A DNA stretch of 49,273 nt from Methanobacteriota archaeon (GTDB lineage: Archaea; Thermoplasmatota; Poseidoniia; Poseidoniales; Poseidoniaceae). The position numbers were made by a program, and so were the translations under genes. Shown piece after piece: positions 5,950-47,890 of the stretch; within the stretch, counting starts at the first letter, position 1, and every line of letters starts with the position of its first letter. The stretch lies in the NCBI GenBank assembly GCA_004195515.1, contig PSPR01000005.1, positions 1 to 49,273 on the forward strand, read 5' to 3'. The notes below the pieces were generated by a model, which was given only the letters and a program-made list of their open reading frames with translations, made no database searches and was not told the origin of the DNA.

Positions 5950-6023
5950 GGGCAATTAGGGTAGCCTGGATATCCTGACGGGCTTCGAACCCGTCGACGC
6001 GGGTTCGAATCCTGCATTGCCCA
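5950..6023 (+). tRNA. tRNA-Arg (anticodon TCG)
   Basis: Acceptor GGGCAAT/ATTGCCC, anticodon stem ACGGG-CT TCG AA-CCCGT, T-loop GGTTCGAATCC. Confidence 0.95.
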
Positions 6024-6206
6024 CCTCGTACTGCAGGGTATTGTACACGGTGGTCAACTAGCCGAGAACTTCCCTCGCTGCGCTCAGTCCAGTTCTCAGG
6101 CTGCATTGCCCGCCTTGTACTGCAGAGTTTTGTACACGGCGGTCAACTGGCCGAGAACTTCCCTCGCTGCGCTCAGTCCAGTTCTCTGGCTGCATTGCCC
6201 GCCTTG
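6012..6206 (+). repeat. tRNA-Arg-linked 89-bp tandem repeat (2 full units plus a partial)
   Basis: Units start at 6012, 6101 and 6190, each with the tRNA 3' end CTGCATTGCCC; two hairpins per unit. Confidence 0.92.
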
Positions 6207-6208
6207 AA

Positions 6209-7207
6209 TTAACGAGTAAAGATAGTAACTTTCTCATCGCCCCATTTTTCTTCTTTCTTCTCGTCAAAATTCGAAAGGTCAAATGATGCAATATATGGCT
6301 CCTTATGAGTTATAGATGACCTGATAAGAATGAACTCATCGATCAAATTTTGTTCGATGAATTTGTTGATGGTTTTCGGCCCACCTTCTACCAATAGTCG
6401 TTGAATTTCTAAATCTCCAAGTAGATCTAACATCGATTCGATTCCGTTAAAATCATCGGTTAAATGACGGGTCGCTCCACCATCTATGAGCACCTTTGCA
6501 TCTTTCGGAATTCGGTTATTAGGATCGATGATTACCCTTAATGGCTGACGTTTGGAATCGACTAACCTGATAGTTAGCGCAGGATTATCTCGGATTACGG
6601 TTTCAGCACCGACCAAAATTGCACAGCAATCCTTTCTCAAATGATGGACTTTGGTCAGACATTGTTCCGAGGTAAATCTCCCCGCGTCTCCGGCTCTATC
6701 ATCGACAGAATAATTTGCATCGACTGCAACCTTGACTGTAACCCATGGTCGACGATTATTACACCAATGCAGGAATTCACGCATTTGGATGCTCGCTTCA
6801 TCAGCCATCAAGCCGATTCTGACCTTGATCCCAGCCTGTTCTAAGACTTTGATTCCGTTACCCCTAACGAGTGGGTTAGGATCTTCACATGCGATGATAA
6901 CCTCGCCAATTCCTGCCCAAAGCAATGCTTCTGTGCACGGCGGAGTTCTTCCAAAGTGATTACAAGGCTCAAGGGTAACATATGCGGTTGCACCATTGGT
7001 ATTATGGCCGTTTTGTTCGGCATCATGAATTGCCATTTGCTCTGCATGTAGCCCACCGATATGGTCGTGCCAGCCTTCTGCGATGACTTCGCCGTCCTTG
7101 ACCAGAACACAACCAACAAGTGGATTTGGACTGACCTTTCCTCGACCGCGCTCAGCGACTTCTATGGCTCGGGCCATATGTTTGAGGTCGGCGACACTCC
7201 AGTCCAT
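6209..7207 (-). CDS. ribD: Bifunctional riboflavin biosynthesis deaminase/reductase
   Basis: PNPLVGCV, HAEQ, TLEPCNHFGRTPPC, ILVGAETV, VEGG motifs. Confidence 0.95.
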   Translation of the reverse strand: MDWSVADLKHMARAIEVAERGRGKVSPNPLVGCVLVKDGEVIAEGWHDHIGGLHAEQMAIHDAEQNGHNTNGATAYVTLEPCNHFGRTPPCTEALLWAGIGEVIIACEDPNPLVRGNGIKVLEQAGIKVRIGLMADEASIQMREFLHWCNNRRPWVTVKVAVDANYSVDDRAGDAGRFTSEQCLTKVHHLRKDCCAILVGAETVIRDNPALTIRLVDSKRQPLRVIIDPNNRIPKDAKVLIDGGATRHLTDDFNGIESMLDLLGDLEIQRLLVEGGPKTINKFIEQNLIDEFILIRSSITHKEPYIASFDLSNFDEKKEEKWGDEKVTIFTR

Positions 7208-7295
7208 CGAGAGAGTGGAAGTGGCAATAGGTCATGACTCCATCGGCGTTTATCGATAGATGGTTTGATTGCCTTGTTTAGTTCTGGACCTACTC

Positions 7296-8324
7296 ATGGA
7301 CCACTTACATTGTATCGTTAACCCGGCCAGCCGGGACCATACATGCGGTAAGCGCTGGCCGAAAGTGGTAGAAAAACTACAAGCCCGTGGATTTGAAGTT
7401 ACAACCCATATGACCGAAAGGGTCGGTCATGCTAGCGAAATTGCATGGAAATTGCGTCAAGATGGTATCGATGGATTAGTCGTCGCCGTGGGCGGCGACG
7501 GCACGGTACACGAAGTCGCCTCAGGACTTCGTGGCGGAGATGTTCCTATGGGGATTTTACCATTCGGTTCTGGAAATGATTACGCTATAACTCAAGGGAT
7601 TCCAAGAAAAAATATCGACGGGGCAATTGAAATTCTCGCCTCCGGCGTGAATCGCCGCTGCGCGGCGTGGCGCCTCGAAGGCTTCCCAGCGGAATCAGCC
7701 CCTGGCTATTCCGCTCCAACCCAAAACCACTGGGATGGCAAACCATCTTCGAAAGACAAGATAGTTAGATGGGTGTTTCTAGAGTCCGACGCTGGAATAA
7801 CCAGTTCGATTTCTCGTGCAAAATTACATCGCGCAAAATGGATCAAAGGCAATAAAAAATATACTTATCTCGGCGTCACAACAATCCCATTTTGGAAACG
7901 ACGCAAAATCTGGTTAAAATTGGATGATAACGCTGGAAAAATCACCGATTTCACCATGTTTGCTGCAACCACGGGTGAAACTTTTGGTGGTGGGTACAAA
8001 GTTTGCCCAGGCGTCACTCCTGTCGATGAAAACGGCTCTTTGGTATTCGGACCACGTTTTTCTAGAATCGCAATGCTCTCTTTGATGGGACCGATGAAAA
8101 AAGGCAAACATATCGGAAAATGGGGAATAACTCAAGTTCAAGCAAACCGAATCGAGATCAAACCAGTAAGCAAAGACGGTTCGGTTAGTGAAACCCCAAT
8201 CGACCCGATCACTTGGGTTCAGACCGATGGCGAACCGGTGATTACCGCCCCAGCGTTACTGGAATGGAAAACCGAGCAATTACTTGTTCGAGGTGCTGCA
8301 GATGTACCTTGGGCTTCACAATGA
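7296..8324 (+). CDS. Diacylglycerol/lipid kinase family protein (YegS/DgkB-like)
   Basis: IVNPAS, GGDGTVHEV, PFGSGNDYA, FGGG, QTDGE. Confidence 0.9.
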   Translation: MDHLHCIVNPASRDHTCGKRWPKVVEKLQARGFEVTTHMTERVGHASEIAWKLRQDGIDGLVVAVGGDGTVHEVASGLRGGDVPMGILPFGSGNDYAITQGIPRKNIDGAIEILASGVNRRCAAWRLEGFPAESAPGYSAPTQNHWDGKPSSKDKIVRWVFLESDAGITSSISRAKLHRAKWIKGNKKYTYLGVTTIPFWKRRKIWLKLDDNAGKITDFTMFAATTGETFGGGYKVCPGVTPVDENGSLVFGPRFSRIAMLSLMGPMKKGKHIGKWGITQVQANRIEIKPVSKDGSVSETPIDPITWVQTDGEPVITAPALLEWKTEQLLVRGAADVPWASQ

Positions 8325-9764
8325 GAAATCATCGAAGTCATCATCTGCAACCGAACTTCGCCTAACGGGTTCAGGGGTTTTTTGCGGCGGCTGTTGTTCT
8401 TCGGTAACAGCTCTTTTCTTTACAGAACGCCGTTTAACCGGTTTAGCTGCCTCGGTAGGACTTGCTGCCCTAGATGGTTGAGTTGCTATCGATGAACTCC
8501 TCATCGCTGAAGAAAAGTGTCCTTTCTTATCAGAAACAGACTCAGGTTGAGAATAAGTCTGGCCTCTTGATGGCCCAGAAGGGGCCGATGAAACCGGATT
8601 AACCGATGAAACCGAATTAACCGGTGAATGAGATACAACAGGTTCTACCGGTTCAATTTGAGAATCCACCATGTCGGCAGCAGACTCGGTGATGGTTACT
8701 CCACCACCCGAAAACTCGCCTGGGCCGCCGATTGAATGCCCGGAGGATAATACCGAATCAAGACTAAACCCTGCAAGTCGTTCTGAAGGTTCTTCATTGA
8801 TAACCTCTCTCTTAGGCGTCGCTTTTGGTTTGGCTCTAGTCTCAGAACTGGAACTGATGTTTTCCGCACGGTCCTTTTTGAGATCCTTTTTCATCTGAAC
8901 CGCTTTCTCAAAGCCTTCTCTTCCCAATAATGTCTTGGCGGTTGAAGTCGCACCTTGACGCATCAACATTGTCGATACGATGTACAAACCGAAACCGCCA
9001 CCGCCTGCTGCGATCATGAAGAAGAAGAGGAAAGTCCAGCCGCCAAATATATCGGTATCGCCCATAGACCATTCATCCTCATCGTCACCTTCCATTGTTA
9101 CAACGCCGGTTTCGGTGGTAATTTTGGTGATGACCATCGCATGTCCTTGACCGAGGACAACACAGCTATCATCGACTTCAATCGAACCTCGTGTGACGTT
9201 CAGGACATAGCCGTCGATGGTGATTGCTTGGTGCCAATCTTCGAGAATATTGAGATTATCGGCGATATTTTCCGAGCCAGGGATGATTCCAATGACTGCC
9301 CAATCGGCTTCAAATTCTGAAATTTTATTGCCGACTTTTTCTTGAGGGGTCAAGGGGCTAATCCACGGTTTTAAATCGACTCTTCCACCCTTACCTTCTT
9401 CGACATTTTTCGCCTCATTAAAACTCATTTTGTGAATGATGACCGATGCACCGATGGCTTGTTCGTGGTCAACCGCATCATCGGTATGACTTTCGTAGAT
9501 AATAGAGGTTAGCAATTGGCCGGTCACAGAAATTTTATTTCGGTCACAAATTGATTCTGAGTCAACCGAATAATCGATCAAATTAATGGTCTCATCATAT
9601 GCAACAGTACCGATTCCAGAATGGATTTTGGCATCTTTGCCAACGAATTCAACATGGATTTCTCCGGTTCCTTTGCCCCAGTCTGGGGTTGGTGCAGAAA
9701 GACATCCTGCCAAAATAAACATGGCGCAAAGCAGCAAAGCGAGTCGTACCCGAGTACCGGCCAT
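8316..9764 (-). CDS. Hypothetical membrane (lipo)protein with disordered C-terminal tail
   Basis: LAGC lipobox-like signal, central TM segment, Ser/Pro-rich tail. Confidence 0.7.
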   Translation of the reverse strand: MAGTRVRLALLLCAMFILAGCLSAPTPDWGKGTGEIHVEFVGKDAKIHSGIGTVAYDETINLIDYSVDSESICDRNKISVTGQLLTSIIYESHTDDAVDHEQAIGASVIIHKMSFNEAKNVEEGKGGRVDLKPWISPLTPQEKVGNKISEFEADWAVIGIIPGSENIADNLNILEDWHQAITIDGYVLNVTRGSIEVDDSCVVLGQGHAMVITKITTETGVVTMEGDDEDEWSMGDTDIFGGWTFLFFFMIAAGGGGFGLYIVSTMLMRQGATSTAKTLLGREGFEKAVQMKKDLKKDRAENISSSSETRAKPKATPKREVINEEPSERLAGFSLDSVLSSGHSIGGPGEFSGGGVTITESAADMVDSQIEPVEPVVSHSPVNSVSSVNPVSSAPSGPSRGQTYSQPESVSDKKGHFSSAMRSSSIATQPSRAASPTEAAKPVKRRSVKKRAVTEEQQPPQKTPEPVRRSSVADDDFDDFSL

Positions 9765-9842
9765 GAGGTACCTACGGTACCTAGGACTTTGTGAACCCTT
9801 GGGTTTGTTTGGCTTTGTATTAGGTAAAATGTGTTGGGGGAT

Positions 9843-9993
9843 TGGTGTGCGCGGAGAGAGATTCTCATCAATTAGTTATGTTGGGATTAGATTCTAATTG
9901 ATGACTACGCCGATAACGGTTGTACTGAATAAAAATGTACAGTTCTCGACTAGTTCGAATCTCTCTCACCGCTTGTTCTGAATAATATTGAAG
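9843..9993 (-). repeat. tRNA-Ser 3' trailer element (antisense copy of tRNA end, shared core, sense copy)
   Basis: 9952-9972 is an inverted copy (20/21) of tRNA 9995-10015; 9849-9864 is a direct partial copy; core homologous to the tRNA-Leu trailer. Confidence 0.88.
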
Positions 9994-10075
9994 CGCGGAG
10001 AGAGAGATTCGAACTCCCGTGTCAAGCGACACCGGCTTTCAAGGCCGGCGCAATACCAAACTTTGCGATCTCCGC
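9994..10075 (-). tRNA. tRNA-Ser (anticodon TGA)
   Basis: Acceptor GCGGAGA/TCTCCGC, anticodon stem CCGGC-CT TGA AA-GCCGG, long variable arm, GTTCGAAT T-loop, discriminator G. Confidence 0.95.
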
Positions 10076-10119
10076 TTATAGCCGGTCCAGATGCCTTTTG
10101 CTCAAGACCTTTACCTCTC

Positions 10120-11461
10120 TCATTCTTCTTTTGAAGTTGCAATAATCGCTAAACCAAGCGCGCTCGCAATCAATCCAAAGGTGAATCCTGGAACACTATG
10201 ATCATCTGTATCTTTAGGATGATCGTGAGATGCCATCACGGTCTCAATATCGTGGGCAAATTCGGCCTCGTTCCACTGGTAACCGCTCCAAGATACGATT
10301 GGTTTCCATTCATTATCTAGGATGAAGGTAAGAACTGAATGCGCTACAGAACATCGTATTTGGGATTGGTATATCGCTATCATCGGTGCTATTTGGAGCC
10401 CAAGCAATGTGCATTTGTTCGGTTAACAAATCCATTCCGCTTTGGCTCTCTTCCCAAGTCATACTGGTATCGTTCCAGAAGTGTAATTGCCACCACCATG
10501 AAAGATCCGCAGGTGCTGAAACATTATTTATCGAAGTCAAATAATGGCCAAAATCACTATCTGGAGTTTCAACTTCATCGAGTGCAGCGATGGTTTGGTG
10601 CCAAGCATTGATCTCAGAAATAACCGCGGTCGAAGAATTACCATCTAGTTGAACGATTGTCATACTTTCATTATTCAAGCCAGGAATTGGAATCATACTA
10701 TCATTGGTAGAATTTGGCGCGAAGGCTAGTCGCCCCACCTCGATACTATCGATGCCAACAGACACTTCTTCCCAAATGGAAGTTGAATCATTCCAAGAAT
10801 GTAATTGCCACCACCAAGAATAATCAGAAGGTGTAGAATCATTATTGATGCTCGATACGAAATGTCCATATTGAGATTCGCTGGCATTAAAGGTCCAATC
10901 CTCTTGGTGAGCAGAGGCAACAAATTGCTGCCAACCCATTGGCATTACTTCGCTTTCAAACGAGGTATTATTAGGCATTACTACCGTAACAGTATCGGAA
11001 TGATCCATGTCTCTGTCGATTGTAATCTCAACATCTTGAGTTTGGATGAAGAAGGCATCCCAAACCGGTTGAAGTTGTGCAGTTGTACCAGTTAGATGCG
11101 GCCAAGAAACATTGTGCTTCTCCATATAGGATTTGAAAACTTCAGGTGTGTCGATTGCTGGGTCGACGGTAATCGAAATGAATTCAACCTCTTCGGTTGA
11201 GACCATATTTTGTACCGATCTAAGTTTTTGAGTGATTGCAGGGCAAGCATCTTCACAGGTGGTAAAAATGAATGCGATCACCGTAGCTTCGGCTAAATTA
11301 CTCTGTAAAGAGTGAGGATTACCATCTTGGTCGGTCAATGTGAAATCTTCAATTTCAGGCCGAGATAATTGCAAACCAGTATACGAATTTCCACCTGCAC
11401 TAGATAGAGGCATGGTTGAAATCATCAATAAGCCAATCAGGCACAATGCAATCTTTCCCAT
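10120..11461 (-). CDS. SCO1/SenC copper chaperone with two inserted DUF4430-like repeats and PGF-CTERM-like anchor; +1 frameshift near 10345-10365
   Basis: FTLTDQDG, FIFTTCEDACP, SITVDP, LTG in ORF 10313-11482; conserved VAHS..TFILD and VPGF-TM tail lie in the adjacent frame (ORF 10120-10407). Confidence 0.8.
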
Positions 11462-11512
11462 AGATGATGGCCTTAGCCACATCTACTTCAATTGATAGGT
11501 TTACCATTCAAA

Positions 11513-11896
11513 TTAATTTGTAACGTAAGAGTAATCCCAGTCCGGAGTACACCAATTCGGCAAATCCATGATGCTGGCAGGATTGGATAATCCAATACCC
11601 CAAAGCATCAAGGCTGCGAATAGAAGTGGAAATATCGCGGTTCGGGTATAGATGATAGGGTCTCCTTTCAAATGCATGAAGAATCCCGCGATTCCGTAAA
11701 TCTTGATGATTCCAATCCCGATTAGAATTGCCCAAACGAGATTGACGCTCAATCCGGTAACATAAACTGCAGCTACCTCAAAAAACGTAAAAAACATCAG
11801 AATAAGGAAGTTTACAAAATAAACATCCTTACCCATCTTATCTGCTAATTTCTGGAATAATCCCGCAACTGGTCCTGTATATTTGTGTTCACTCAT
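11513..11896 (-). CDS. coxD: Cytochrome c oxidase subunit IV (prokaryotic)
   Basis: Three TM helices, K..I...FFMHLK motif, GAGGTGA RBS, operon position. Confidence 0.85.
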   Translation of the reverse strand: MSEHKYTGPVAGLFQKLADKMGKDVYFVNFLILMFFTFFEVAAVYVTGLSVNLVWAILIGIGIIKIYGIAGFFMHLKGDPIIYTRTAIFPLLFAALMLWGIGLSNPASIMDLPNWCTPDWDYSYVTN

Positions 11897-11906
11897 CTCA
11901 ATCACC

Positions 11907-13254
11907 TCAGTACAAATAGAATGCTGGGAAGATGGCAACCCAAGCCAAATCCACAAAGTGCCAATACAAACCGAAATACTCGATTCCATGGCCGTTCTTT
12001 TCATCGTAGCCGACGGTATCAGCCTTGAATATCATGAATAACATTACTAGTAATCCAATGAATACGTGCAGACCGTGGGCGCCGGTAGCGATAAAGAAGA
12101 TCGAACCTGCTTGAGTTCCGATATCGAATCCTTCCGCAACCAGATGGCTCCACTCGATAATCTTCAAAATGATGAAGAGAGAACCGAGAAGCACGGTTGC
12201 GATCAGATAGTTTCGCACCGCTTTTTGCCGAGTCGGTAATAATCTGCGGACCCATTTTGTTTCCGATGGTTTCCAATCAACATCTTTAGCGGTCTTCAGC
12301 GCTAAGACAATTGTATAGGAAGATATGATTAGAGCAAATGTATTGACCGCTCCAGGCAATAGTGTCATTATATCGTGTCGAAGTAGGTCAGATGCAGTTG
12401 TGGTATCGACTGTTTTACAGCGTCCAGCATCAACTGCCCATTGAGTACACCAACCGGTTCTCATCCGCAGATATGCCGAGAAGAATGATGCGAAAACCAT
12501 AACTTCAGAAATTAGGAATACCCACATACCAGCCTTTCTGATATGTTGTCCTCCGAATGGTTTTCCAAGTGCTACTTGCTCCTTTGCACCGATCAGGTCT
12601 TCTCTCCACCAATTGCCGATTCCAATAATTAAAATTATGAATCCAGCACATGAAATTGCGAAGCCAACGTAATCTGCAGCTATGTCGATTCCAAGCATTG
12701 CTTTTGTAGTCTTCACAAATCCTTGGAAGCCCATCATAAAGAATAACAAACCAGTTGCCATCAATATCGGCGAAGCCGATCCATGATGATCACCATAACC
12801 ATCTCCATTGTCGTCATGTCCGTGGTCTTCAGGGCGGATACTATTGAAGAATCCAGCGATGATGTAAAACGCTCCGTAGATGAACGTCATAACCATGATC
12901 GTCTTACCTGCAACGGTCCAAGTCAGGTATGAAAGATGGGCTTGTTCCTTATTATGCTCAGCGACTTCATACTTTTCAGTCGCTTCTTCGAGACTCTTTT
13001 CTGCTTGATGATAATCTTCAGCAAAGACACCGGTATTTTGTCGCTAGATGGAATTCGTCTTTTGCATCGACGTAATCGGCGTGGGCTTGTTCGTAAGGTT
13101 TGATGGTTTCGTCCCAGAAGCCGTGCATCACGGTTCCTAGACCAACTGTAAGAATTGTGAACGCAGCTAGGCCAATTCCGATAACCACCGCTCCGATAAT
13201 GACGGTCTTCATCCAGACCTCGTTCTTGACATCATGTAATCCGTGTCCACTCAT
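11907..13254 (-). CDS. coxC: Cytochrome c oxidase subunit III with N-terminal extension; +1 frameshift at about 13036-13039
   Basis: GMWVFLISEVMVF, TGAHGLHV, LYWHFVD; ATGA-coupled start at 13254 whose frame joins the 11907-12896 frame if one base is removed from the A4 run. Confidence 0.88.
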
Positions 13255-15557: not shown

Positions 15558-15562
15558 TTAAC

Positions 15563-17784: not shown

Positions 17785-17810
17785 ATCACCAAGGATGCTC
17801 AAGCGGCTCT

Positions 17811-21589: not shown

Positions 21590-21598
21590 GACCCGGGA

Positions 21599-23496: not shown

Positions 23497-24510
23497 TTAT
23501 TGCTCATTCTCTTGAGAGAATAGAGAACTTTGCGCTCGCTTGTACACCTCTCTTAAGGTCTGGTCACTTATTTCCAAATAGACCCGAGTCGTCGCAATAC
23601 TCGCATGACCGAGCAATCTTTGAATAGTTACCAAATCCGCTCCTCTCTCCAAAAGTCCAGTAGCAAAATTATGACGTAATACGTGCGGGGTGACCCTGCT
23701 ACGTGGGATTTCAGCGTCATCAGCAAGTCGATTCATCATTCTTTGAACAGTTCTTGTTTGCAAACTTGTGCCTTTTGTCGTAACTAGTAATTGATCGTTG
23801 TTTGGATTTCTCAAGTCTCGTAAAGGCAACCATTCTTGAATTCGTTGGACTGTTTCTTGTGTAAAAAGAATTAGGCGATCTTTGTCTCCTTTTCCACCCA
23901 CTACCATCGCCGAGCGGTCGTTCAAATCTATATCTGTTAATTGAAGAGAACACAATTCACTAACTCGCATGCCGGTCTCTAGCAATATTGTTACCACTAG
24001 ATTTGCGACCGGGTCTTCACTTTGTCCAGCGACCATTCTTACCATTGATAATTCTCTTCGGGTGAGTGTGCGTGGTAATTTTTTCCCGCTGCGTGGGCGG
24101 GTCAAATGATCCGGCCATTTTTGCCCTAGCCAATTTATCAGATGGTTTGCAGCAGCATATCTGGCTTTGATAGTCGAAGCCGATTTATCGCCCAATGATT
24201 GAACCCACATATCTAGTCGGCCATTGAGTGGCTCAATTCGATCAAGCAATTTTTCAACCGTTATTTTTTGAAATTCTACTTCGCTAAGAATCGCTTCACC
24301 AGGCAGCGGAGTTTCGATGAATAATCTCAAGGAAATAATATAGGATTTTTGAGTGTTAATCGATTTGCTTTCGCTCGCCATTTGTGTCCGGTAAGTGCTC
24401 AGCCAAGGCAAATGTGCTCGATGAACCAATCGCGGTGGAAGTTCGGGACCATCGATGTATAAGCGTCGCTGAATAGCGCTATGCTTAGCCTGAAAGGTCC
24501 CTCTTCTCAT
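23497..24510 (-). CDS. xerA: Tyrosine recombinase, XerA-like
   Basis: KKLPR, TGMRVSE, GKGDKDR, TPHVLRHNFAT, LLGHAS..TTRVY; stand-alone in a housekeeping context; ATG after GGTGA. Confidence 0.85.
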   Translation of the reverse strand: MRRGTFQAKHSAIQRRLYIDGPELPPRLVHRAHLPWLSTYRTQMASESKSINTQKSYIISLRLFIETPLPGEAILSEVEFQKITVEKLLDRIEPLNGRLDMWVQSLGDKSASTIKARYAAANHLINWLGQKWPDHLTRPRSGKKLPRTLTRRELSMVRMVAGQSEDPVANLVVTILLETGMRVSELCSLQLTDIDLNDRSAMVVGGKGDKDRLILFTQETVQRIQEWLPLRDLRNPNNDQLLVTTKGTSLQTRTVQRMMNRLADDAEIPRSRVTPHVLRHNFATGLLERGADLVTIQRLLGHASIATTRVYLEISDQTLREVYKRAQSSLFSQENEQ

Positions 24511-38652: not shown

Positions 38653-38798
38653 TTACTAATTCGCCCGGCCCCCACATATGTCTTTCGGATGGCATTATCG
38701 GCGGACTAAACGGCTTTTTTGAACCTAACTTGCAGTATTTACGCGACGCGGTATTGAAATAGGGGAGGATTGTCGCCGGGCCTGAAGGAGAGTTTGCC

Positions 38799-40097: not shown

Positions 40098-40140
40098 GCA
40101 CCAACCGGATTACGATCCAAAAGGAATAGAGGTGAATATC

Positions 40141-40470
40141 ATGGCAGCAGTGACCATCATCAAGCTAACAGGCGAGAACCATCGTGACATCGACGCAGTC
40201 GCATCCCAAATCAAAATGATTTGTGATAATGGCGGCATCAGTCTACGAGGCCCGATCCCACTACCAACCCGTCGTCTTGTGGTACCAGTCCGCAAGGCTC
40301 CAGATGGCGAAGGCAGTGAAACTTACGATCACTGGGAAATGCGTATCCACAAGCGATTGCTTGAGATGGACATTACCAGCGGAAAGGACGAGAGTGCTCT
40401 GCGACAAGTCGCACGCATTCCAATCCCTGATACTGTAAGCATTGAACTTTCAATGCGCTCGGTACAATAG
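40141..40470 (+). CDS. rpsJ: 30S ribosomal protein S10
   Basis: GPIPLPTRRL, DGEGSET, WEMRIHKRL; follows EF-1alpha. Confidence 0.97.
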   Translation: MAAVTIIKLTGENHRDIDAVASQIKMICDNGGISLRGPIPLPTRRLVVPVRKAPDGEGSETYDHWEMRIHKRLLEMDITSGKDESALRQVARIPIPDTVSIELSMRSVQ

Positions 40471-40495
40471 ATTCTATTTCACAATTGAATCGGTT

Positions 40496-41494
40496 TCACA
40501 ATGTGGCTTTCTCAGCCACACCTGCATCGACTAACCAGTCGGCAGTTCCTTGATCAAGGAAATGAATATCACCTGCTTCAAGTGATATTTCCCCGTCAAT
40601 AGTCATTATTGGTTCGTCCATAGATTGTAATACTCTGATTCTGATCATCGAATCTTCTTCAAATTGAGGTTCTTTTTCGATTTCACCTTGGGTTGGTGAA
40701 CCGGCCTCTGCCGCAGCCCAAGCGTTGAAATCGATACTTTCCTTCTTTTTTGCAGGAGCGAGTTCAGTTGCAGCTGCATGGGTTTGACCAATCACACTAG
40801 GTTCTGCAATCTTTACTAGTGTCGGTTCCATTCCCTCCAATTCTGGATACGCATCTTGCATTGCAAGAATATCCTCCTCATCTGTTTCAATCTCTTGTAA
40901 CGGCGATGAGTCATCTTCCAATGCGATCGTGGGCGGACCTTGGCCGGTTAAACCGCCAGGTTGCTCAATAAATGTGTCGAGTTGCATTGTACCTGCTGCT
41001 AATGGAGATTGAGCGGCTGTACCCTCGGATGCCAAGCCATGTTGCATTCCATTCCAATTAACCGATAATTTGAATCGATCAATATTTTGGACCACGCTCG
41101 AATAAAATTCTCTTTCTGCCGGGTCGTGGCGGCCCCAATCGAGTGCGGGCAAATCTTGCTTGTGGTTTTGAATACCACCCTCGGAGCGTAAACTCACGCT
41201 CGAAGCGTGCTGTTGAAACGAAACCAATCTTTTTCTAGCCAACTCAGAAGAGGTTCGGCGGATATTGGCTTGACGCTTCTGTAAATTTTGCAATCGCAAG
41301 TCCGGGCCTCGAGTTCGATAGATTTCATGAATTTGCATTTCGATTGTATCGAGGAGTTGGCCGACCTTTTCCCAAAAGTCGCGCCGAGGCAAAACTATTG
41401 GCACATGTCTGCCGGTTTGTTGACGCAGTGTGGCGAAAAGTTGCTCTTCAACCTCTCGGGCTTGAACGTCATCCAATAGCGGCCGCTCTACCAT
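40496..41494 (-). CDS. GINS complex subunit (Gins15/51-like) with long acidic linker
   Basis: Helical N-terminal domain; C-terminal IRIRVL...DGEISLEAGDIHFL...A..LV..G.AE matches the GINS B-domain pattern. Confidence 0.65.
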   Translation of the reverse strand: MVERPLLDDVQAREVEEQLFATLRQQTGRHVPIVLPRRDFWEKVGQLLDTIEMQIHEIYRTRGPDLRLQNLQKRQANIRRTSSELARKRLVSFQQHASSVSLRSEGGIQNHKQDLPALDWGRHDPAEREFYSSVVQNIDRFKLSVNWNGMQHGLASEGTAAQSPLAAGTMQLDTFIEQPGGLTGQGPPTIALEDDSSPLQEIETDEEDILAMQDAYPELEGMEPTLVKIAEPSVIGQTHAAATELAPAKKKESIDFNAWAAAEAGSPTQGEIEKEPQFEEDSMIRIRVLQSMDEPIMTIDGEISLEAGDIHFLDQGTADWLVDAGVAEKATL

Positions 41495-41579
41495 GGTTCG
41501 GCTGCTGTAGTTGCCCATCTATCAACCCTTCAGCCGGTCTACTTGAACCAAGTAGTGCAACAATTCAAACCCATAGACC

Positions 41580-44500
41580 TTGGGTCCACCGGTGGTGGAC
41601 CCATTGAGACAAGCACTCATCCTCGCGATTTTGCTCTTGGCCACACCGTGGGCATCAGCAGATTTCGCAGTTTGGGAAGGGCCGGAAACCTCGCCGGATG
41701 ATGCAAGCCTCTCACCATCAACTTCAACTTATGATGGCTTTAGAATTCCATCCAATGCAACGATTACCGGTGCGACATTTGAAGTCGCACCAGAATGGGT
41801 GGAGGCAGAGGATAACGGCACATATTGGGCAAAAGATTCACCGGGAGGGTTTTCGGCCGGTACATCGAATGGCACCTCTTATCTTTCCCACGGTGGCGAT
41901 CTCACTCTTGAAGCTCAATCGATATATGGGAGGATGACCGATTTTGAATCACAATCCCCACAATTTAGTTCGTGGTCGGTTCACGGTGATTTGATTTGGA
42001 TTCCAGTCAATCTTAGTGTTGAGACCTTTGGCCCGACCAATGCGAGTTCAGGTCATTATGCTGCAGGCACAAATGGTTCGGTCCCGCCTGATACTCGATC
42101 AAAATTGCGTTCTCAATTCTGGAACCCTCCAGCGGTCATCCGCAACATGTCGGTTTCTTTCGACCGCTGGTTCTTACTCAACCCATATGATTTAGCAACT
42201 TTTGAAGCCTCCTTTGATTCTGGCCAATCCTGGACTGAACTGGATAACTGGTCAGGCCAAGAAGAAAACTGGACTAGAGAAGAATACCCCTTAGACGCTT
42301 ATTCTGTTAGCTCACAAATCGGCTTTAGGTTCACGATTTCGACAGCGCAAAACTCAACCACAACCGAAGGTCTATTCATCGATAATTTCGAATTTTCAAA
42401 TCAGGGTGAGCCGATCAGCGCCTGGTTCCACGGTAATGCAAGTGGAGAATATTCTGCGAACGCTGACGGCTCGTTAATCATTCCACTAGACCTTGGTGGC
42501 CTAAATGGCCCAATCGAATTCGTATACTGGTCGTGGTGGGATATCGAAGCCGATTATAACGATAATTTAGTGATGATGATCTCGGTTGATAATGGTTCAA
42601 CTTGGACGATAATGTCGCCACTACCCGGCGTGCCTGGACTAGGAGTTCCAAGCGGGAGCGGGACCCTTACCCAACAATCCTATGACTGGGTCGAGATCAT
42701 GCATCCACTACCTTCGAATGTGATAGGCCATAGCAATGCTAGCCAAACACTCCTCAAGCTTAGGGTAACTACCGACGGCATCAAAAATAACGGCGGAAGT
42801 GCAATCGAAGGCTGGGAAGGAATCATCGTCGACGATTTAGCATTGAGGATGCCGGGTGGCGATATTGCTCTCAATAATTTCACCGATGTTAGCACTCAAT
42901 ATCTTGAAAATGTAAGTGGTTATCCAAACGATTGGCAACATATAACCTGGGAAGGACATAATGGGCCATGGTCGACAACAGAATCATTTGAATCGAACCA
43001 AATGCTCCCTGCAGGTTGGAGAATAGATCACAAGCGCGGTAATACTCCTTGGGAGGCTGGTGCGATCAATAATTCCAATAATCGAGGACCTTATTCTTCT
43101 GGGTGGCCGAGTGGACAAAATGGAGTTGGGATAAATCTCGATGGAAATTATGCTCATAGCACCCTTACCCATTTGATCTCTCCAAATTATCACTTACCGA
43201 TTGGAGCGACCGCTCGCCTCTCATTCCAACATTGGATTTGCACCGAGGCCGCGTGGGATGGTGGTGCGGTTTTCACCTCGATTGACGATGGGATTTCATG
43301 GCAATATTTTGGTGAAAACCAAAGTGGATTCTATGAAAGAATCAGCCAAGTAAATTCAAATTCACCGCTATTTGGACATGAGATATTCGATGGTTCAACC
43401 GTGGTCAATGGTTGTGGTAATAACAACAGTGCCCATACTTTTTCAAGTAACTCCGCTGATATTTCATTCCTAGCAGGAAATGATGTAAGGATTAGATTTA
43501 CCTTTTTCTCAGATGCATATGTGAGCGAGTCCGGTTGGTACATCGATGATGCAGGGATTGAGATCGACCGATTTGTCTCTAATGGGACTTGGCTTTCTCC
43601 AATAATAGATGTTGATGAGGCTGGGTGGGCGCGCCTTGCTTCATTATTCCACACCCCGAATGAAACCGGCATCAGTATAGATATTTTAGACCAATACGGG
43701 GCTGAGATTCCAGATAAACAGAATCTGAGTTTGCCATTCACGATTGGAATTGGGGCGTGGGAACATACCAAATTACAATTTAGAGTGAATATGTGGAGCC
43801 AAAATGAAAGCATTACTCCCCGAATAGAAATTCTGCATCATGGCATTACTGAATATATCAACCAGTATCATCCGCTAATAATAGAATCTGAGTCGGAAAA
43901 TCCAGAATTAATTATCGGAGCTAATGGCAGTGTAAATTTGGTGAACACAAGTGGTGGTAGCACTTTCTTTGAGTTCCCAATAATTCCATGGCGGCCGTTT
44001 GAATCAGCACGAATTTCGTGCGATGGAGAGATGGATTTAGAATTATGGAATCTGTATAAATATCTCGAAGGAGGCGGCCAATCCCAAGGAGGGCAGCCAC
44101 AACAACAACAAGTCTCTGCAGGTTGTAATGTTGGCGAAATAAATTTTAACGAAGTAGTGGGGGTTAGCATAATCAATCCGAGGTTGAATGATGGGTGGTT
44201 CAATTGGCTGAAGTTCGAACCAGTAACCCTAAGGGCACCAAAAAATGTTTCAATAAATTTTGGAAATAACAATCATTCAGAATTCATTATTCCAAATTTA
44301 TATGCCCATACAACTCAAATTACTAAATTAATAACCGATGGAGAAGAAACTAATTTCTCCGATCCCAGAGGATTTGAGGTAGATTATAATTCTAGTTTCA
44401 GTTTCTCGACCACAGTATTGGACGACCACGATATATCCAATCAATATCATTGGGTTACAAATCAGTCAAGTTGTGCAATGATCGTTTCCCCTTACGAAGG

Positions 44501-47500
44501 ATGCATTTCCGGGTCCATTACCGAGAAATATCAAGAAGAAATTAACGGGACACTATATCGTTGGATGAATATCACCTGGTCGCAAACCAATCTTACCCCC
44601 GGGACTCTAAAATTGATCGCAATCTCTGCAGTTGCAGATCAACCTTTCGAATTCGCTCTCGCACCTTCTGCTTTAACACCATTAATGGTTGACCAAGGCG
44701 ACGGGACATCAATCCTCCCTGTCAACATAACCGTGCTGCGCGGCGGGGTAATTTTCGATGGAATAATCGACTATGAAGTTTCAATTTTCGATAAATGGCA
44801 AAGTATGCCCGAACAAACGCTTTATCCGGGAAATTCTGTCCAAGCTAAGTCCAATCACTCGATATTAAACGGGACCTCTCCACTCGAATCTGTTGAATTA
44901 ATCATCTCCTCTTCAAGAAATGCTTCCGATGCTTTAGCATCGTTTGCAGTAGACAATCTCGACATCGGCGGTCGCTTCATTCAGCATAGCGGTGGCGGTT
45001 TGATTTCAATCAATGCAAGTTTGAGCTCTTGGGATGGTGAAAACGCGACCTGGGGTTTGAACTCCCATTGGCTACTCGATGATTATCCGCGCTTATACTG
45101 GCTGGTTAGCGCCAAGAATGAACTTGGAATCACATTGGGCCCAGCGGTAGGCATGACCGGTTCTGGCGGTTATGCTGCGAGCACAAACGATCTAGAAATT
45201 GTCGGTTTTAGCGCTTCGACCAGCAATTATGATTTGGGGGATTTCGCAGATCCACTTTGGCCGTTCCACCTCCAAGGTGGAACCAACATTACAGTCGATG
45301 GACAGGTTAGATTCTCTGGTTTACAAGGGATCGTGCCATTACCTGAAGATGTAGAGATCGAATTGGAAATATTCGATGAAAATCAATCCTATCAAACCTT
45401 GAGTGTTGTCTTGGATTCAGATGGTACCTTCTCAACCTCGTTTTTCAGCCCGGGTGCACAACTCAATAGTGGCGATACATTCACCGTCATTCCTTCGTTG
45501 AATAGAGTAGGGCCTCAAGGGATTGTCACAGCTGTAGATGTAACTGCAGATTATCAAAAAATCACCTATCTCTTGGATAGTGTGAACGCCGAAGTTATTT
45601 CTTTACACGTGGTCGCTCCAGGCGGAATTCAGCCCGCTGATGGCCATGTATGGTTCCATGGCCAAGACTTACCTCTTAGATTGGGAATTTCAGATGATAA
45701 TGGCTTACCTGCAACTATGGTAATGCATTATAGCCGCTCGGGTCGAGATTGGGAAGAGATGACTTTCACGACCCCGATCGGTTTATCTTCCGCCGAGATA
45801 GATCTACCGCTCATCGATGAATATTCCATTCCGCTTAATTCACAATTGAACGGCTATCTAGATGTTTATTTTACCGGCACTGATTTAGCAGGGAATCCGA
45901 TGATAGGTGGCGGCAATGAATCAATTCCATTAGCGAGAGTCCTCATTCAGGACCGTTACTCAACCTATGCCGAAGGCGAAGATTTAGGCTTGGATTTAGT
46001 CGATGGATATCTGTTGCCAGGAAATACTCATAAATTCGAATTTTCAATTACCGATAATAATGGAATCGAATCTCTAGATCTGATCAAATTCGGTTTACAA
46101 CAAGAAGGTTGTACAATCCAATGGTATCCATGGAGTGGAGAAGTTATCAACGATGTTTCATGTTTTATCAGACCTCCTCGAATCAACTATACCCAAGTTG
46201 GGGAATCAGGTCTTTATTTCGTCAATATTCAATTTGAATTGAGGTGGGACCTCGAGGAGGATTTACCATCTTCAACTCTGACTCCTTGGTTACATATCTA
46301 TGATGAAAACGCTAGAACCGGAGCCGGATATAACTCGATGACTCCGTTAAATTGGCAATTCCATTCAGGTGTCGATTTCGTCATTGAATCGGCAGAGGAT
46401 TTGATTGCACCAAAAGGAGAATTAATCGACGATATTATCTATGTCCATGACCAAGATTTGGTTGATTTTGAGTTGATTGCATACCATGCAGGTACCGATA
46501 TTCCTGCACACAATTTACCATTCAACACCAATGCATTACTTCGAATGGATGGCAATACAAATCATACCGATTTGGAAAATAGCATGAATTCGGACGGAAC
46601 TTCGACCATTAGGGTAATGGTCGATCAATCATATCTTGGAAAACAGATCTATGTGCTGGTTAGTTTATCTGAACTAAGGGGACATAACTTAAGCAGCGAT
46701 TCGGCCACTATCGTCATCGATGATAGTGAACCTACTCTGAGTATTACCGATGGCTATTTGGTCGAAATAAGAACCGATTCATTGGCTGATATCCCGGTCG
46801 AGTTAACCGTTTATGATTTGGAATCATCAAGCAACTCTGAAGTGAATATGTATTGGCAATTTATTCGCTCTGGCAGAATCATTTCTGGAACTGAAGGTAG
46901 CGCCTCGGTCCCTGCGCTGTTCAGCGATTCTCAGTCTACGATTCATTCAACAAATATCGATATGAGCGCAGCATCTCCATTCCTCGAGAAAGGTGATTCA
47001 ATTCTCGTTTGGTTCGAAGGAGAGGATTCATCGGGCCGAACGATTATCGGTGAAGGGGCTAGTCAATCCAGCCCAATTATGCCATTTTTGCGATGGATTG
47101 CATATGAGCCTGAATTAGGCGAGATCATTACTACGCCTTATCGGCCAGAACTCGGCGATATGATCCAAATCCATCTGACAATTTTCAACCCAGGATTTGA
47201 ATCGGGACATTCATATTTGACCCTAAGAGATGGGACTGGTAAAATGCTTGACAAGGTCAACCTCTCGGTGGGTATCGGACAAAGGGTCCCTTATTCATTC
47301 GAGATCGAAGCTTGGACTGTGGGTGACCTTGGCTTAACGGTTCAAATCGATGAACAATCACCCGTCCCGGTACCATTGGCTCAAGTTGTTGAGCCGATAG
47401 ACGAGAACGCAGCATCACAATCAACAATGGTCTCACTCGGCTTTTTCAGCATTGCAATCGCCGGCTTTGCTCTCTTCCTTTCCTACCACAATAAGCGTAG

Positions 47501-47531
47501 CGACCGGCTTGTTGACGATGAGGAAGAATGA
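41580..47531 (+). CDS. Giant (about 1980 aa) cell-surface glycoprotein, membrane anchored
   Basis: Signal peptide (start probably GTG 41592/41595), three jelly-roll repeats (S.D.G.SW...FRF...G..IDD), many NxS/T sequons, CARDB-like end, C-terminal TM. Confidence 0.85.
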   Translation: MGPPVVDPLRQALILAILLLATPWASADFAVWEGPETSPDDASLSPSTSTYDGFRIPSNATITGATFEVAPEWVEAEDNGTYWAKDSPGGFSAGTSNGTSYLSHGGDLTLEAQSIYGRMTDFESQSPQFSSWSVHGDLIWIPVNLSVETFGPTNASSGHYAAGTNGSVPPDTRSKLRSQFWNPPAVIRNMSVSFDRWFLLNPYDLATFEASFDSGQSWTELDNWSGQEENWTREEYPLDAYSVSSQIGFRFTISTAQNSTTTEGLFIDNFEFSNQGEPISAWFHGNASGEYSANADGSLIIPLDLGGLNGPIEFVYWSWWDIEADYNDNLVMMISVDNGSTWTIMSPLPGVPGLGVPSGSGTLTQQSYDWVEIMHPLPSNVIGHSNASQTLLKLRVTTDGIKNNGGSAIEGWEGIIVDDLALRMPGGDIALNNFTDVSTQYLENVSGYPNDWQHITWEGHNGPWSTTESFESNQMLPAGWRIDHKRGNTPWEAGAINNSNNRGPYSSGWPSGQNGVGINLDGNYAHSTLTHLISPNYHLPIGATARLSFQHWICTEAAWDGGAVFTSIDDGISWQYFGENQSGFYERISQVNSNSPLFGHEIFDGSTVVNGCGNNNSAHTFSSNSADISFLAGNDVRIRFTFFSDAYVSESGWYIDDAGIEIDRFVSNGTWLSPIIDVDEAGWARLASLFHTPNETGISIDILDQYGAEIPDKQNLSLPFTIGIGAWEHTKLQFRVNMWSQNESITPRIEILHHGITEYINQYHPLIIESESENPELIIGANGSVNLVNTSGGSTFFEFPIIPWRPFESARISCDGEMDLELWNLYKYLEGGGQSQGGQPQQQQVSAGCNVGEINFNEVVGVSIINPRLNDGWFNWLKFEPVTLRAPKNVSINFGNNNHSEFIIPNLYAHTTQITKLITDGEETNFSDPRGFEVDYNSSFSFSTTVLDDHDISNQYHWVTNQSSCAMIVSPYEGCISGSITEKYQEEINGTLYRWMNITWSQTNLTPGTLKLIAISAVADQPFEFALAPSALTPLMVDQGDGTSILPVNITVLRGGVIFDGIIDYEVSIFDKWQSMPEQTLYPGNSVQAKSNHSILNGTSPLESVELIISSSRNASDALASFAVDNLDIGGRFIQHSGGGLISINASLSSWDGENATWGLNSHWLLDDYPRLYWLVSAKNELGITLGPAVGMTGSGGYAASTNDLEIVGFSASTSNYDLGDFADPLWPFHLQGGTNITVDGQVRFSGLQGIVPLPEDVEIELEIFDENQSYQTLSVVLDSDGTFSTSFFSPGAQLNSGDTFTVIPSLNRVGPQGIVTAVDVTADYQKITYLLDSVNAEVISLHVVAPGGIQPADGHVWFHGQDLPLRLGISDDNGLPATMVMHYSRSGRDWEEMTFTTPIGLSSAEIDLPLIDEYSIPLNSQLNGYLDVYFTGTDLAGNPMIGGGNESIPLARVLIQDRYSTYAEGEDLGLDLVDGYLLPGNTHKFEFSITDNNGIESLDLIKFGLQQEGCTIQWYPWSGEVINDVSCFIRPPRINYTQVGESGLYFVNIQFELRWDLEEDLPSSTLTPWLHIYDENARTGAGYNSMTPLNWQFHSGVDFVIESAEDLIAPKGELIDDIIYVHDQDLVDFELIAYHAGTDIPAHNLPFNTNALLRMDGNTNHTDLENSMNSDGTSTIRVMVDQSYLGKQIYVLVSLSELRGHNLSSDSATIVIDDSEPTLSITDGYLVEIRTDSLADIPVELTVYDLESSSNSEVNMYWQFIRSGRIISGTEGSASVPALFSDSQSTIHSTNIDMSAASPFLEKGDSILVWFEGEDSSGRTIIGEGASQSSPIMPFLRWIAYEPELGEIITTPYRPELGDMIQIHLTIFNPGFESGHSYLTLRDGTGKMLDKVNLSVGIGQRVPYSFEIEAWTVGDLGLTVQIDEQSPVPVPLAQVVEPIDENAASQSTMVSLGFFSIAIAGFALFLSYHNKRSDRLVDDEEE

Positions 47532-47560
47532 TGAGCAATGGGTATGAGCCGGGGTGTAGA

Positions 47561-47645
47561 GCCGGAGTACCCGAGTGGTCAAAGGGGGCGCACTCAAGAT
47601 GCGCTGCGAAATGCTTCGTAGGTTCAAATCCTACCTCCGGCACCA
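47561..47645 (+). tRNA. tRNA-Leu (anticodon CAA), CCA encoded
   Basis: Acceptor GCCGGAG/CTCCGGC, GCGCA-CT CAA GA-TGCGC, variable arm, GGTTCAAATCC. Confidence 0.96.
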
Positions 47646-47890
47646 ATATTATTCATAACGAAGAGGTAGGATTTGTACCGGGGCTAGTTGCAGTACGGCC
47701 GTTCTTGCCGTGGTTCAAAATCTACCGGAGGCACCAATTTTGTTCAAATCGAGGAGGTAGGATTTGAACTAGGCAAGAACTGTACAGCAAACTGCAGTAC
47801 GGCCGTTCTTGCCGTGGTTCAAAATCTACCGGAGGCACCAATTTTGTTCAAATCGAGGAGGTAGGATTTGTACCGAGGCTAGCGAAGCAA
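47646..47890 (+). repeat. tRNA-Leu 3' trailer array of hairpin elements
   Basis: Identical 78-bp repeats at 47689-47766 and 47793-47870; three antisense and two sense copies of the tRNA 3' end. Confidence 0.92.

Follow-up and report, generated by a model that had tools for sequence, protein, structure and literature searches.

Hairpin cassettes carrying copies of the adjoining tRNA 3' end behind tRNA genes of a Poseidoniaceae archaeon

Why should a tRNA gene be followed by copies of its own 3' end, in both orientations, and how did they arise? The question is raised by a stretch of 49,273 nucleotides (positions 1 to 49,273, forward strand, of contig PSPR01000005.1, assembly GCA_004195515.1; hereafter the window) in which three tRNA genes, tRNA-Arg(tcg), tRNA-Ser(tga) and tRNA-Leu(caa), were identified with ARAGORN. 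An earlier reading of the sequence had proposed that each is followed by an element combining copies of its own 3' end with a common core. Own-end copies were found at all three genes, but the family extends over the genome and is not a matter of three loci; conserved modules are likewise present, as two loop modules (A and B) instead of one core.

Units behind the tRNA genes of the window

Each of the three tRNAs (3/3) is followed by 1 to 2.5 units of 89-144 nt. Reading on from the tRNA end (S), a turn leads to an antisense copy (A) of that end, which is followed by the cassette, made up of one or two hairpins whose loops are conserved, and by a new sense copy (S). The loop of hairpin A starts with TGTACA and that of hairpin B is 22 nt long (TTCCCTCGCTNCGCTCAGTCCA). 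The DNA after the new sense copy was taken to be the old trailer, the trailers being too diverged for alignment.

The tRNA-Arg(tcg) gene lies on the plus strand (5950-6025), and its last ~14 nt (6012-6025) form the first sense copy (S0) of an array on the same strand. Unit 1 consists of a 23-nt spacer serving as turn (6026-6048), an antisense arm (6049-6058) that complements the adjoining upstream tRNA end, with GGTGG opposite CCACC, hairpin B (6064-6097; 6-bp stem 6064-6069/6092-6097, 22-nt loop 6070-6091) and sense copy S1 (6101-6114), in which the discriminator is G as against A in the tRNA itself. Unit 2 (6115-6203) repeats this order with a spacer (6115-6137), an antisense arm containing GGCGG, which matches S1 (6138-6147), hairpin B (6153-6186; loop 6159-6180) and sense copy S2 (6190-6203). 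The 15-mer predicted for these units, with its 14/15 match to the Ser locus, and the GTACTGCAG-N5-TGTACA motif were both recovered; what had been called an inverted core is, more precisely, the Arg spacer, which is homologous to the hairpin A loop of the Leu and Ser loci in the opposite orientation.

Arrays of this kind enlarge through tandem duplication, and the Arg array is a tandem repeat (6012-6206) with a period of 89, 2.2 copies and 93% matches. Unitigs from an independent metagenome run tiled it with zero mismatches (6012-6090, 6082-6179 and 6157-6500), so the array is not an assembly artefact. A joint going back 178 nt was seen in run X3 and could represent a longer array or a graph cycle.

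The tRNA-Ser(tga) gene and its unit are on the minus strand. The gene (9993-10075) is followed by an AT-rich spacer (9973-9992) that, as predicted, is common to the Leu locus, and by an antisense arm (9953-9972) covering the acceptor 3' strand, T-stem and T-loop and ending in GAAC; this arm is predicted to pair with the 3' end of its own tRNA. Then come hairpin A (9911-9949; stem 9942-9949/9911-9917, loop 9918-9941 starting TGTACA), a third hairpin with a 9-bp stem that is particular to this locus (9867-9902) and sense copy S1 (9849-9864).

The tRNA-Leu(caa) gene (47561-47645, plus strand) is followed on the same strand by two units and part of a third. Unit 1 (47646-47736) comprises a spacer (47646-47662), an antisense arm (47663-47679), a truncated hairpin A (47680-47711) and sense copy S1 (47712-47736), which shows a 6-nt inversion relative to the tRNA. 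Unit 2 (47737-47840) comprises a spacer (47737-47753), an antisense arm (47754-47769), hairpin A (stem 47773-47780/47805-47812, loop 47781-47804) and sense copy S2 (47816-47840), and partial unit 3 (47841-47874) a spacer (47841-47857) and an antisense arm (47858-47874). The ungapped alignment of the Ser core (9903-9956, minus strand) with the Leu core (47766-47819) was reproduced at 38/54 positions, against a mean of 13.5 (sd 3.2) for all 54-mers of the window and 28 at the next best unrelated place.

Distribution, folding and loop orientation

Spread within the genome was measured with a 13-nt cognate probe for each tRNA (T-stem 3' strand, acceptor 3' strand and discriminator), applied to the 31 tRNAs with at least 200 nt of downstream sequence. 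A sense copy matching at 11/13 or better, and better than the probe of every other tRNA, was found behind 15/31 tRNAs, an antisense copy (at least 10/13, same requirement) behind 7/31, and one or the other behind 18/31. Non-cognate probes reached 11/13 in only 0.44% of 2046 comparisons, so the copies are cognate rather than due to chance. Being ungapped, the test overlooks any arm with an indel, the Arg antisense arm among them. Matches to loop B (8/8) and to class A (6/6) in this genome all lie behind a tRNA and on its strand, so that the family is strictly linked to tRNA genes here. The insertion point at every affected tRNA is the end of the acceptor stem. Arm sequences vary from locus to locus, mirroring the neighbouring tRNA, and the original view of one family with constant cassettes and locally tailored arms stands. 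Some contigs of the assembly end inside elements.

The elements are insertions, and they have colonised most tRNA genes of one lineage. In five genomes of the same genus the tRNA-Arg(tcg) gene is followed directly by a short trailer and the site is empty; in the closest relative (G204) the element is present. The same probe test gave cognate copies at 0/28 tRNAs in a congener (G104) compared with 18/31 here. G204 and the present genome (G000) have the same arms behind tRNA-Gln(ttg), but between them only G204 carries a two-hairpin cassette of ~86 nt, with a 5-nt direct repeat at its borders. When up to 2 mismatches were allowed, a search for the 22-nt loop was positive in 9/201 Poseidoniales genomes (0/9 of the others in the genus, 1/99 in the same family and 7/99 in another family); with up to 1 mismatch, it was found in 2/401 Thermoplasmatota genomes, both Poseidoniales. 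The arms in other loop-bearing genomes are likewise tailored, each to its own tRNA. Copies of the core are present behind further tRNAs and in part of the relatives, and independent assemblies support its sequence.

Folding was assessed in 25 distinct archaeal instances of hairpin B. Closing pairs 1-4 were paired in 25, 25, 22 and 24 of the 25, with several pair types, and 85% of cells were paired as against 29-43% when the partner was slid. Loop positions 8 and 14 also covary (G:C 20, C:G 2, A:T 2, one mismatch). Covariation is seen both in the stems and in a mini-hairpin inside the 22-nt loop, which shows that the elements fold as single strands. Folding z-scores were -5.5, -3.3 and -4.2 for the Ser and Leu units; the Arg unit alone folded weakly (-1.4 and -0.3). 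The loops flip: on the tRNA strand, loop B was read forward 12 times and in reverse 7 times, which makes a strand-specific RNA, transcribed together with the tRNA, less likely. Counts of G·T versus A·C on that strand (4 versus 2) favoured neither reading. Inspected by eye, the consensus of the loop fitted no K-turn, hammerhead or HDV-like reading.

Bacterial copies of the loop and searches for a mobilising enzyme

In several bacterial phyla, the same 22-nt loop caps palindromic repeats that lie between genes and have no link to tRNAs. A scan of genome contigs gave at least 123 exact matches in at least 120 loci; among the matches listed, the only locus within 500 nt of a called tRNA was the archaeal one. 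The largest clusters of neighbour genes at these loci encoded ABC ATPases and short-chain dehydrogenases, the only relevant cluster was that of IS1182-type transposases, and transposase homologues or fragments were present at 8 of the at least 120 loci. Genes between paired loop copies were ordinary. In Bacillales the loop lies inside the left-end hairpin module of an IS1182-type element. At locus L079, the loop-bearing hairpin is ~100 nt upstream of an IS1182-type transposase, and the IS copy is flanked on both sides by a terminator-like hairpin, the two copies being 20/22 identical. The Staphylococcus aureus version of the Bacillales module (Rfam RF02577, tsr24) has no such loop, and the bacterial module scored 30.2 bits against tsr24, below the threshold of 50. 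The module was present in 4 plasmid records, none usefully annotated, and in 0 records of a phage collection. What archaea and bacteria share is the 22-nt loop only, arms, ends and inverted repeats being different, and the link of the archaeal loop to IS1182 is accordingly thin. The presence of the loop in repeats of such distant bacteria points to an undescribed kind of mobile DNA.

Enzymes were sought by profile searches in assemblies that are 54-86% complete (85% for G000). No match to Y1_Tnp (PF01797), TnpB (PF07282), IS110, rve, DDE_Tnp_1 (PF01609) or RVT_1 was found in G000. Y1_Tnp was likewise missing from all five of the other loop-positive Poseidoniales assemblies searched (G105, G117, G133, G204 and G120), and DUF772 (PF05598) was found in 0/5 genomes (G000, G105, G117, G133 and G204). 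The recombinases of G000 were one Xer-like tyrosine recombinase, ~13 kb or more from any window tRNA, and one serine recombinase, frameshifted, N-terminally truncated and at a contig end. No integrase adjoined any tRNA of G000, none besides the Xer-like recombinase was intact, and, as first stated, no enzyme gene was found next to the elements. This weakens the case for a mobile element but does not refute it, because IS copies are often lost from MAGs. An origin by reverse transcription of mature tRNA was rejected: the antisense arms match the genomic bases past the discriminator and carry no complement of the CCA tail, unless CCA is genome-encoded, and no RVT_1 gene was found.

When the window was scanned against Rfam at the gathering thresholds, tRNA alone passed, and permissive scans of 7 loci, the Sporosarcina module and the Arg array gave no family; an alignment to the small SRP model (E = 0.1 on 301 nt) was judged a chance match. 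No description of the elements was found in the published literature, supplementary files being outside the coverage. Searches for the loop as a literal string returned unrelated papers only, and the nearest match for tRNA-linked repeats was the tRNA-linked STRs of Entamoeba.

Origin of the elements and its implications

The reading that we prefer, at a probability of about 0.55, is that the elements are non-autonomous, gene-less hairpin cassettes, a form of selfish DNA inserted exactly at the 3' ends of tRNA genes. The cassettes would be recognised as folded single-stranded DNA and would land at the base of a hairpin-like target, in a tRNA gene the end of the acceptor stem. Such landing would resemble the published behaviour of the IS1182 family, the left end of whose Bacillales members contains the same 22-nt loop: IS1272/TnSha1 is reported to target DNA hairpins, such as the base of terminator hairpins, without primary-sequence specificity (Furi et al., 2016, PMC4923244). 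The duplicated tRNA end would then be a long target duplication, and the antisense arm may stem from fold-back copying of the flank, with template switching or processing of a hairpin-capped end as candidates. The mobilising enzyme would be supplied in trans and encoded outside this assembly. No documented transposition chemistry accounts for the antisense arm. Also against this reading, no element was seen to move, to excise or to exist in free form. Of the three candidates in the original prediction, whose interpretation is partly supported, a non-autonomous element fits the evidence better than att-site relics or a regulator of tRNA 3' processing. That prediction had not foreseen the two orientations of each loop, the bacterial repeats with the 22-nt loop away from tRNAs, or the link to IS1182.

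A functional RNA, transcribed with the tRNA or just after it, is unlikely. It could act as a trailer structure sequestering the tRNA end, or as a mimic of the acceptor/T-arm minihelix serving as decoy or as processing or regulatory substrate. The elements invariably follow the tRNA on the same strand, pairing is possible between the antisense arm and the 3' end of its own tRNA, the stems covary, and the antisense/sense helix of class-B units (~12 bp, over T-stem and acceptor strands) has the length of a tRNA minihelix. However, 28/28 congener tRNAs and the orthologous Arg site of each of five relatives lack the elements, which makes an essential role unlikely; the conserved loops occur both ways round relative to the tRNA, and the same loop occurs away from tRNAs in bacteria. 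Several tRNAs are, moreover, directly followed by runs of 5-6 T, which in archaea would stop transcription before the element. Quite unlikely, too, are att relics, left where integrase-borne elements had serially entered tRNA 3' ends and later been deleted, with attL/attR and element ends remaining as in CIMEs or accretion arrays. The direct tRNA-end copies do look like attL/attR and bound the insert, and the discriminator G of the downstream Arg copies is expected if an incoming element replaced the tRNA end; tRNA-adjacent integrating elements are reported for Poseidoniales (bioRxiv 10.1101/2025.08.03.668216). Against this, no second copy of any tRNA end was found at kb scale on the same contig, the lone Xer-like recombinase adjoins no tRNA, integration leaves the antisense copies unexplained, units follow 18 or more different tRNAs in this genome but 0/28 in the congener, and IMG/VR contained no exact match to the loop, which in bacteria lies in repeats far from tRNAs.

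Least probable, and very unlikely in our view, is an origin without any mobile element, by repeated fold-back template switching at tRNA genes (micro duplication/inverted triplication/duplication) in a replication- or repair-defective lineage. The order sense-antisense-sense is the product expected of two switches; behind tRNA-Gly(tcc), 9 nt are followed by a 3-nt turn and then by their exact inverse; the stem formed by tRNA end and antisense copy reaches 5-8 nt into the trailer at Ala(ggc), Cys and Pro(tgg); and one Leu sense copy carries a 6-nt inversion, as the loops also flip. Yet cassette loops that are near-identical across tRNA loci, Poseidoniales families, archaea and bacteria cannot be created by local copying, and template switching is not the whole story, though it may have shaped the arms. 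A doubtful but broader proposal is that the loops, and in particular the 22-nt one containing a GNA mini-hairpin, are a heritable, horizontally travelling unit that builds its own stem by inverted copying of the flank. In an archaeon without terminator hairpins, each tRNA tail would thereby become a tailored hairpin plus a spare tail, by a new, target-templated insertion chemistry operating in bacteria and archaea through host replication/repair enzymes alone or an unrecognised hairpin-specific enzyme.

The units share several traits with known systems. Among these are IS1182-family insertion sequences and their ORF-less left-end modules (IS1272/TnSha1; RF02577 tsr24): in Bacillales the 22-nt loop sits in the left-end hairpin module of such an element, and the L079 IS copy lies between duplicated hairpins as the archaeal units lie between duplicated tRNA ends; by analogy, the end of the acceptor stem may be read as a hairpin base. 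Unlike them, the archaeal assemblies searched contained no such transposase, and the portions of the IS1182 literature consulted report no member with an antisense copy of its target. REP/REPIN-RAYT systems and IS200/IS605 PATEs are also short, gene-less, hairpin-forming and spread over the genome, and are recognised as folded strands, as the archaeal units may be; but no Y1 HUH transposase was found in G000 or the five loop-positive genomes, and the archaeal units are strictly at tRNA 3' ends rather than dispersed, with arms that vary and mirror the neighbour. Direct repeats of a tRNA 3' end downstream of an intact tRNA gene are also left by tRNA-targeting integrative elements and CIMEs, and occur at E. 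coli tyrT; in contrast to CIMEs and att remnants, the archaeal units are 89-144 nt long, include an antisense copy, lack an integrase and have hit most tRNAs here and none in the congener. Integron attC and the attP of CTXphi are folded single-strand recombination sites, and a hairpin whose stem restores the duplex of the target would suit such a reaction well, the sole tyrosine recombinase of G000 being Xer-like; the archaeal targets, however, vary in sequence between tRNAs, and neither attC-like nor dif-like boxes were identified.

If the preferred reading holds, some conserved factor should recognise the 22-nt loop, which has hardly changed between Planctomycetota, Bacillales and marine group II archaea, and finding that factor could reveal a hairpin-specific enzyme. 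The reading would also bear on tRNA 3' processing, on breaks in MAG assembly and on whether tRNA-end repeats should be taken for prophage scars, and the self-copying arms would suggest a naturally retargetable insertion system. Structure-targeting mobile DNA would extend to archaea, with tRNA genes replacing terminator hairpins as landing sites, and the 3' flank of most tRNA genes would have been remodelled within the divergence of a single genus.

tRNA genes of the window and the units behind them

Three tRNA genes were called in the window with ARAGORN: tRNA-Arg(tcg) at 5950-6025 (+), tRNA-Ser(tga) at 9993-10075 (-) and tRNA-Leu(caa) at 47561-47645 (+). The genes around them are ordinary housekeeping genes (CoA-transferase, XPG/FEN-1 nuclease, methyltransferase, RibD, lipid kinase, SCO1 and COX3), and the FEN-1 gene is consistent with a genome of Poseidoniales (marine group II archaea). 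The original prediction had described related cores behind the Ser and Leu genes, and this similarity was confirmed: 38 of 54 positions agree in an ungapped alignment, against a window background of 13.5 ± 3.2 and a score of 28 at the next best unrelated place in the window. The AT-rich spacer said to be common to the Ser and Leu loci was found on reading the 3' flanks, as were the 15-mer of the Arg units that matches Ser at 14 of 15 positions and the motif GTACTGCAG-N5-TGTACA in the Arg units.

Every unit (a hairpin insertion of 89-144 nt) is read in the same order: the tRNA end (S), a turn, an antisense copy of that end (the A arm), one or two hairpins with conserved loops, and a new S. Hairpin A has a stem of 7-8 bp ending GAAC/GTTC and a loop that starts TGTACA, and is present in the window at Ser and Leu. 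Hairpin B, present at Arg, has a short variable stem enclosing a 22-nt loop, TTCCCTCGCTNCGCTCAGTCCA (loop B), and the turn of the Arg unit is the loop of hairpin A with its orientation reversed. The Arg 3' flank is a tandem repeat with a period of 89 nt and 2.2 copies. It reads CCCACC at the tRNA end and CCCGCC in both later copies; the antisense arms read GGTGG and then GGCGG, each matching the copy immediately upstream. Since the antisense arms contain genomic bases past the discriminator and no complement of CCA, they copy DNA or a precursor and not the mature tRNA. In an independent metagenome run, mismatch-free unitigs cover 6012-6090, 6082-6179 and 6157-6500, which excludes an assembly artefact as the source of the Arg array. 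The DNA runs that contain this stretch indicate vent plumes and marine water as places where the lineage occurs.

Cognate copies in the assembly and in its relatives

The assembly that holds the window, G000, comprises 1.92 Mb in 81 contigs, is 85% complete and has 34 tRNAs called with ARAGORN. With a 13-nt probe taken from each tRNA end, a cognate sense copy was found at 15 of the 31 testable tRNAs, a cognate antisense copy at 7 and either at 18. Of 2046 comparisons with non-cognate probes, 0.44% reached the sense threshold, and direct reading of the flanks with indels permitted yielded a few additional affected loci. Throughout the genome, every good match to the loop-B or the class-A (TGTACA-loop) motif is found 43-256 nt downstream of a tRNA and on its strand (8/8 for loop B, C75 included, and 6/6 for class A). 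At least one tRNA of this genome, probably containing an intron, was missed by ARAGORN. Its 3' end, recognisable by T-arm, acceptor strand and CCA, lies at ~1890-2090 of contig C75, and the unit behind it has a sense copy and a loop B that has diverged (5 mismatches).

Two tandem units of ~65 nt each on contig C37, downstream of tRNA-Val(tac) (6276-6349, -), contain a degenerate stretch that resembles loop B and an incomplete copy of the tRNA end; they were unscored by the cognate test. Several contigs start or end at a tRNA gene or within an element (C68:3-86, C10 and C55 of G000; C130, C162 and C52 of G204). Because the elements break short-read assemblies, counts of tRNAs and elements from metagenome-assembled genomes are lower bounds.

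Empty tRNA-Arg(tcg) sites, with a short trailer directly after the tRNA, were found in five genomes of the same genus (G104, G108, G202, G208 and G220). In one of these, G104 (10 contigs), the same 13-nt-probe test gave cognate copies at 0 of 28 tRNAs, a result that both controls for the test and speaks for wholesale colonisation of one lineage. The closest relative, G204 (76-86% identity), carries the element at Arg, Phe and Gln. At its Gln(ttg) gene, hairpins A and B form a cassette of ~86 nt with a 5-nt direct repeat as boundary; the flanking arms also exist in G000 without the cassette, so cassettes and arms can come and go separately.

Conserved loops in archaea and bacteria

Among 201 Poseidoniales genomes, loop B was found with at most 2 mismatches in 9: 0 of 9 others of the same genus, 1 of 99 of the same family and 7 of 99 of the other large family. 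When at most 1 mismatch is allowed, 2 of 401 Thermoplasmatota genomes carry it, and both belong to Poseidoniales. In the other Poseidoniales genomes it also lies behind tRNA genes, with arms tailored to those tRNAs; there it usually comes after hairpin A and is itself oppositely oriented. An ARAGORN tRNA lies within 600 nt upstream of 19 of the 25 distinct archaeal instances; of the remaining 6, at least two are at contig ends (L142 and L008) and one (L011) follows an uncalled tRNA-like gene. The arms of one orphan unit (L007, contig C8 of G117, near locus position 1500), which has no tRNA called within 1.5 kb, match tRNA-Leu(tag), a gene that G117 has on contig C26; movement of a copy, duplication of the locus or faulty binning could each account for this.

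In hairpin B, closing pairs 1-4 can form in 25, 25, 22 and 24 of these 25 instances, and as many as four pair types are seen at one position. Over six pairs, 85% of cells are paired, compared with 29-43% when the partner is slid. Positions 8 and 14 of loop B covary (G:C in 20, C:G in 2, A:T in 2 and one mismatch; n = 25, leaving out C75 and C44, with at least 4 mismatches, and a GC-rich match at L003), which defines a two-pair mini-hairpin within the loop, its complement reading GCGNAGC. The excluded C75 row later proved to be a real family member. For folding of single-stranded DNA, z-scores were -5.5, -3.3 and -4.2 in the Ser and Leu units, and the Arg unit folds weakly (-1.4 and -0.3).

A search of one genome per prokaryotic species for the exact loop pattern gave at least 120 loci. 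The matches listed include Kuenenia and other Planctomycetota, Treponema and other Spirochaetia, Bacillales genera, one Patescibacteria genome, one Parabacteroides and one Thalassarchaeaceae archaeon; among the 123 instances listed, only the archaeal one has a called tRNA within 500 nt. The bacterial loop sits atop lineage-specific palindromic repeats. To our knowledge, intrinsic-terminator hairpins are absent in archaea, which would explain why the loop is linked to tRNAs in the archaeon and not in bacteria. Its variable middle base takes all four values among the 123 instances listed (T 46, C 43, A 20 and G 14), as would fit the middle base of a triloop. At two loci of a Planctomycetota genome (L053 and L081), unrelated sequence splits copies of the palindromic repeat that bears the loop, each time at the same internal point, which suggests that a second element inserts into such repeats.

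At a Bacillales locus (L079), an IS1182-type transposase of 451 aa, with the domains DUF772, DDE_Tnp_1 and DDE_Tnp_1_6, is encoded ~100 nt downstream of a loop-bearing hairpin. This IS copy is flanked by two copies of a terminator-like hairpin that are identical at 20 of 22 positions, and homologues or fragments of the transposase are present in 8 of the 120 loci among the matches listed. The Rfam family tsr24 (RF02577) aligns to the Bacillales module and has 2 positions where Sporosarcina has 25, so the loop is an optional apex insert even there. According to Furi et al. (2016; PMC4923244), IS1272 and TnSha1, of the IS1182 family, insert at DNA hairpins without primary-sequence specificity, and a review cited in that paper describes palindromes as targets of some family members.

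Mobilising enzymes and origin of the units

No matches to Y1_Tnp, TnpB, IS110, rve, DDE_Tnp_1 or RVT_1 were found in G000 (85% complete). Y1_Tnp was absent from five other loop-positive assemblies (G105, G117, G133, G204 and G120), and DUF772 from G000, G105, G117, G133 and G204; these negatives come from incomplete genomes, where repeats assemble poorly. The only tyrosine recombinase of the assembly lies in the window at ~23563-24018 (-), in a 341-aa open frame (Phage_integrase domain, E = 5e-39); it is Xer-like and presumably the archaeal Xer homologue. A large serine recombinase, split by a frameshift and missing its N-terminal catalytic part, lies at a contig end (C13:34815-35051 of G000; locus L195, 1450-1948) and may mark the border of a mobile element that failed to assemble.

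Three other explanations each account for part of these observations, and each fails on particular points. One takes the copies as integrase scars behind tRNAs; no tRNA end recurs at kilobase distance within its contig, so no large integrated element is involved. Another is a functional trailer RNA or minihelix decoy. On the tRNA strand, 12 instances of loop B are forward and 7 reverse, and hairpin A is likewise found in both orientations. DNA hairpins are known to flip loops that are enclosed by short inverted repeats, and such flipping is difficult to square with a strand-specific RNA function that depends on the tRNA transcript. The third is pure template switching.

We favour cassettes that would be recognised as folded single strands and land at the base of a hairpin-like target. 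In a tRNA gene folded as a single strand, the hairpin base would be the end of the acceptor stem, the exact start of every unit, and the duplicated tRNA end would represent a long, variable target duplication. The antisense arm is unaccounted for by any documented chemistry; it may come from fold-back copying, in which either template switching or the processing of a hairpin-capped end would be at work. Fold-back copying fits the palindromic turn at Gly(tcc) (9 nt, a 3-nt loop and the exact inverse of the 9 nt), the tRNA-end/antisense stems, which at Ala(ggc), Cys and Pro(tgg) take in 5-8 nt of the trailer, and a 6-nt inversion in one Leu copy. Arrays would then lengthen by slippage between sense copies.

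No family matched these elements in Rfam scans, and no paper describing them was found in the literature searched. An insertion family that is structured and gene-less has colonised most tRNA genes of one lineage at their 3' ends; it carries copies of each tRNA target and has one loop in common with hairpin-associated mobile DNA of bacteria.
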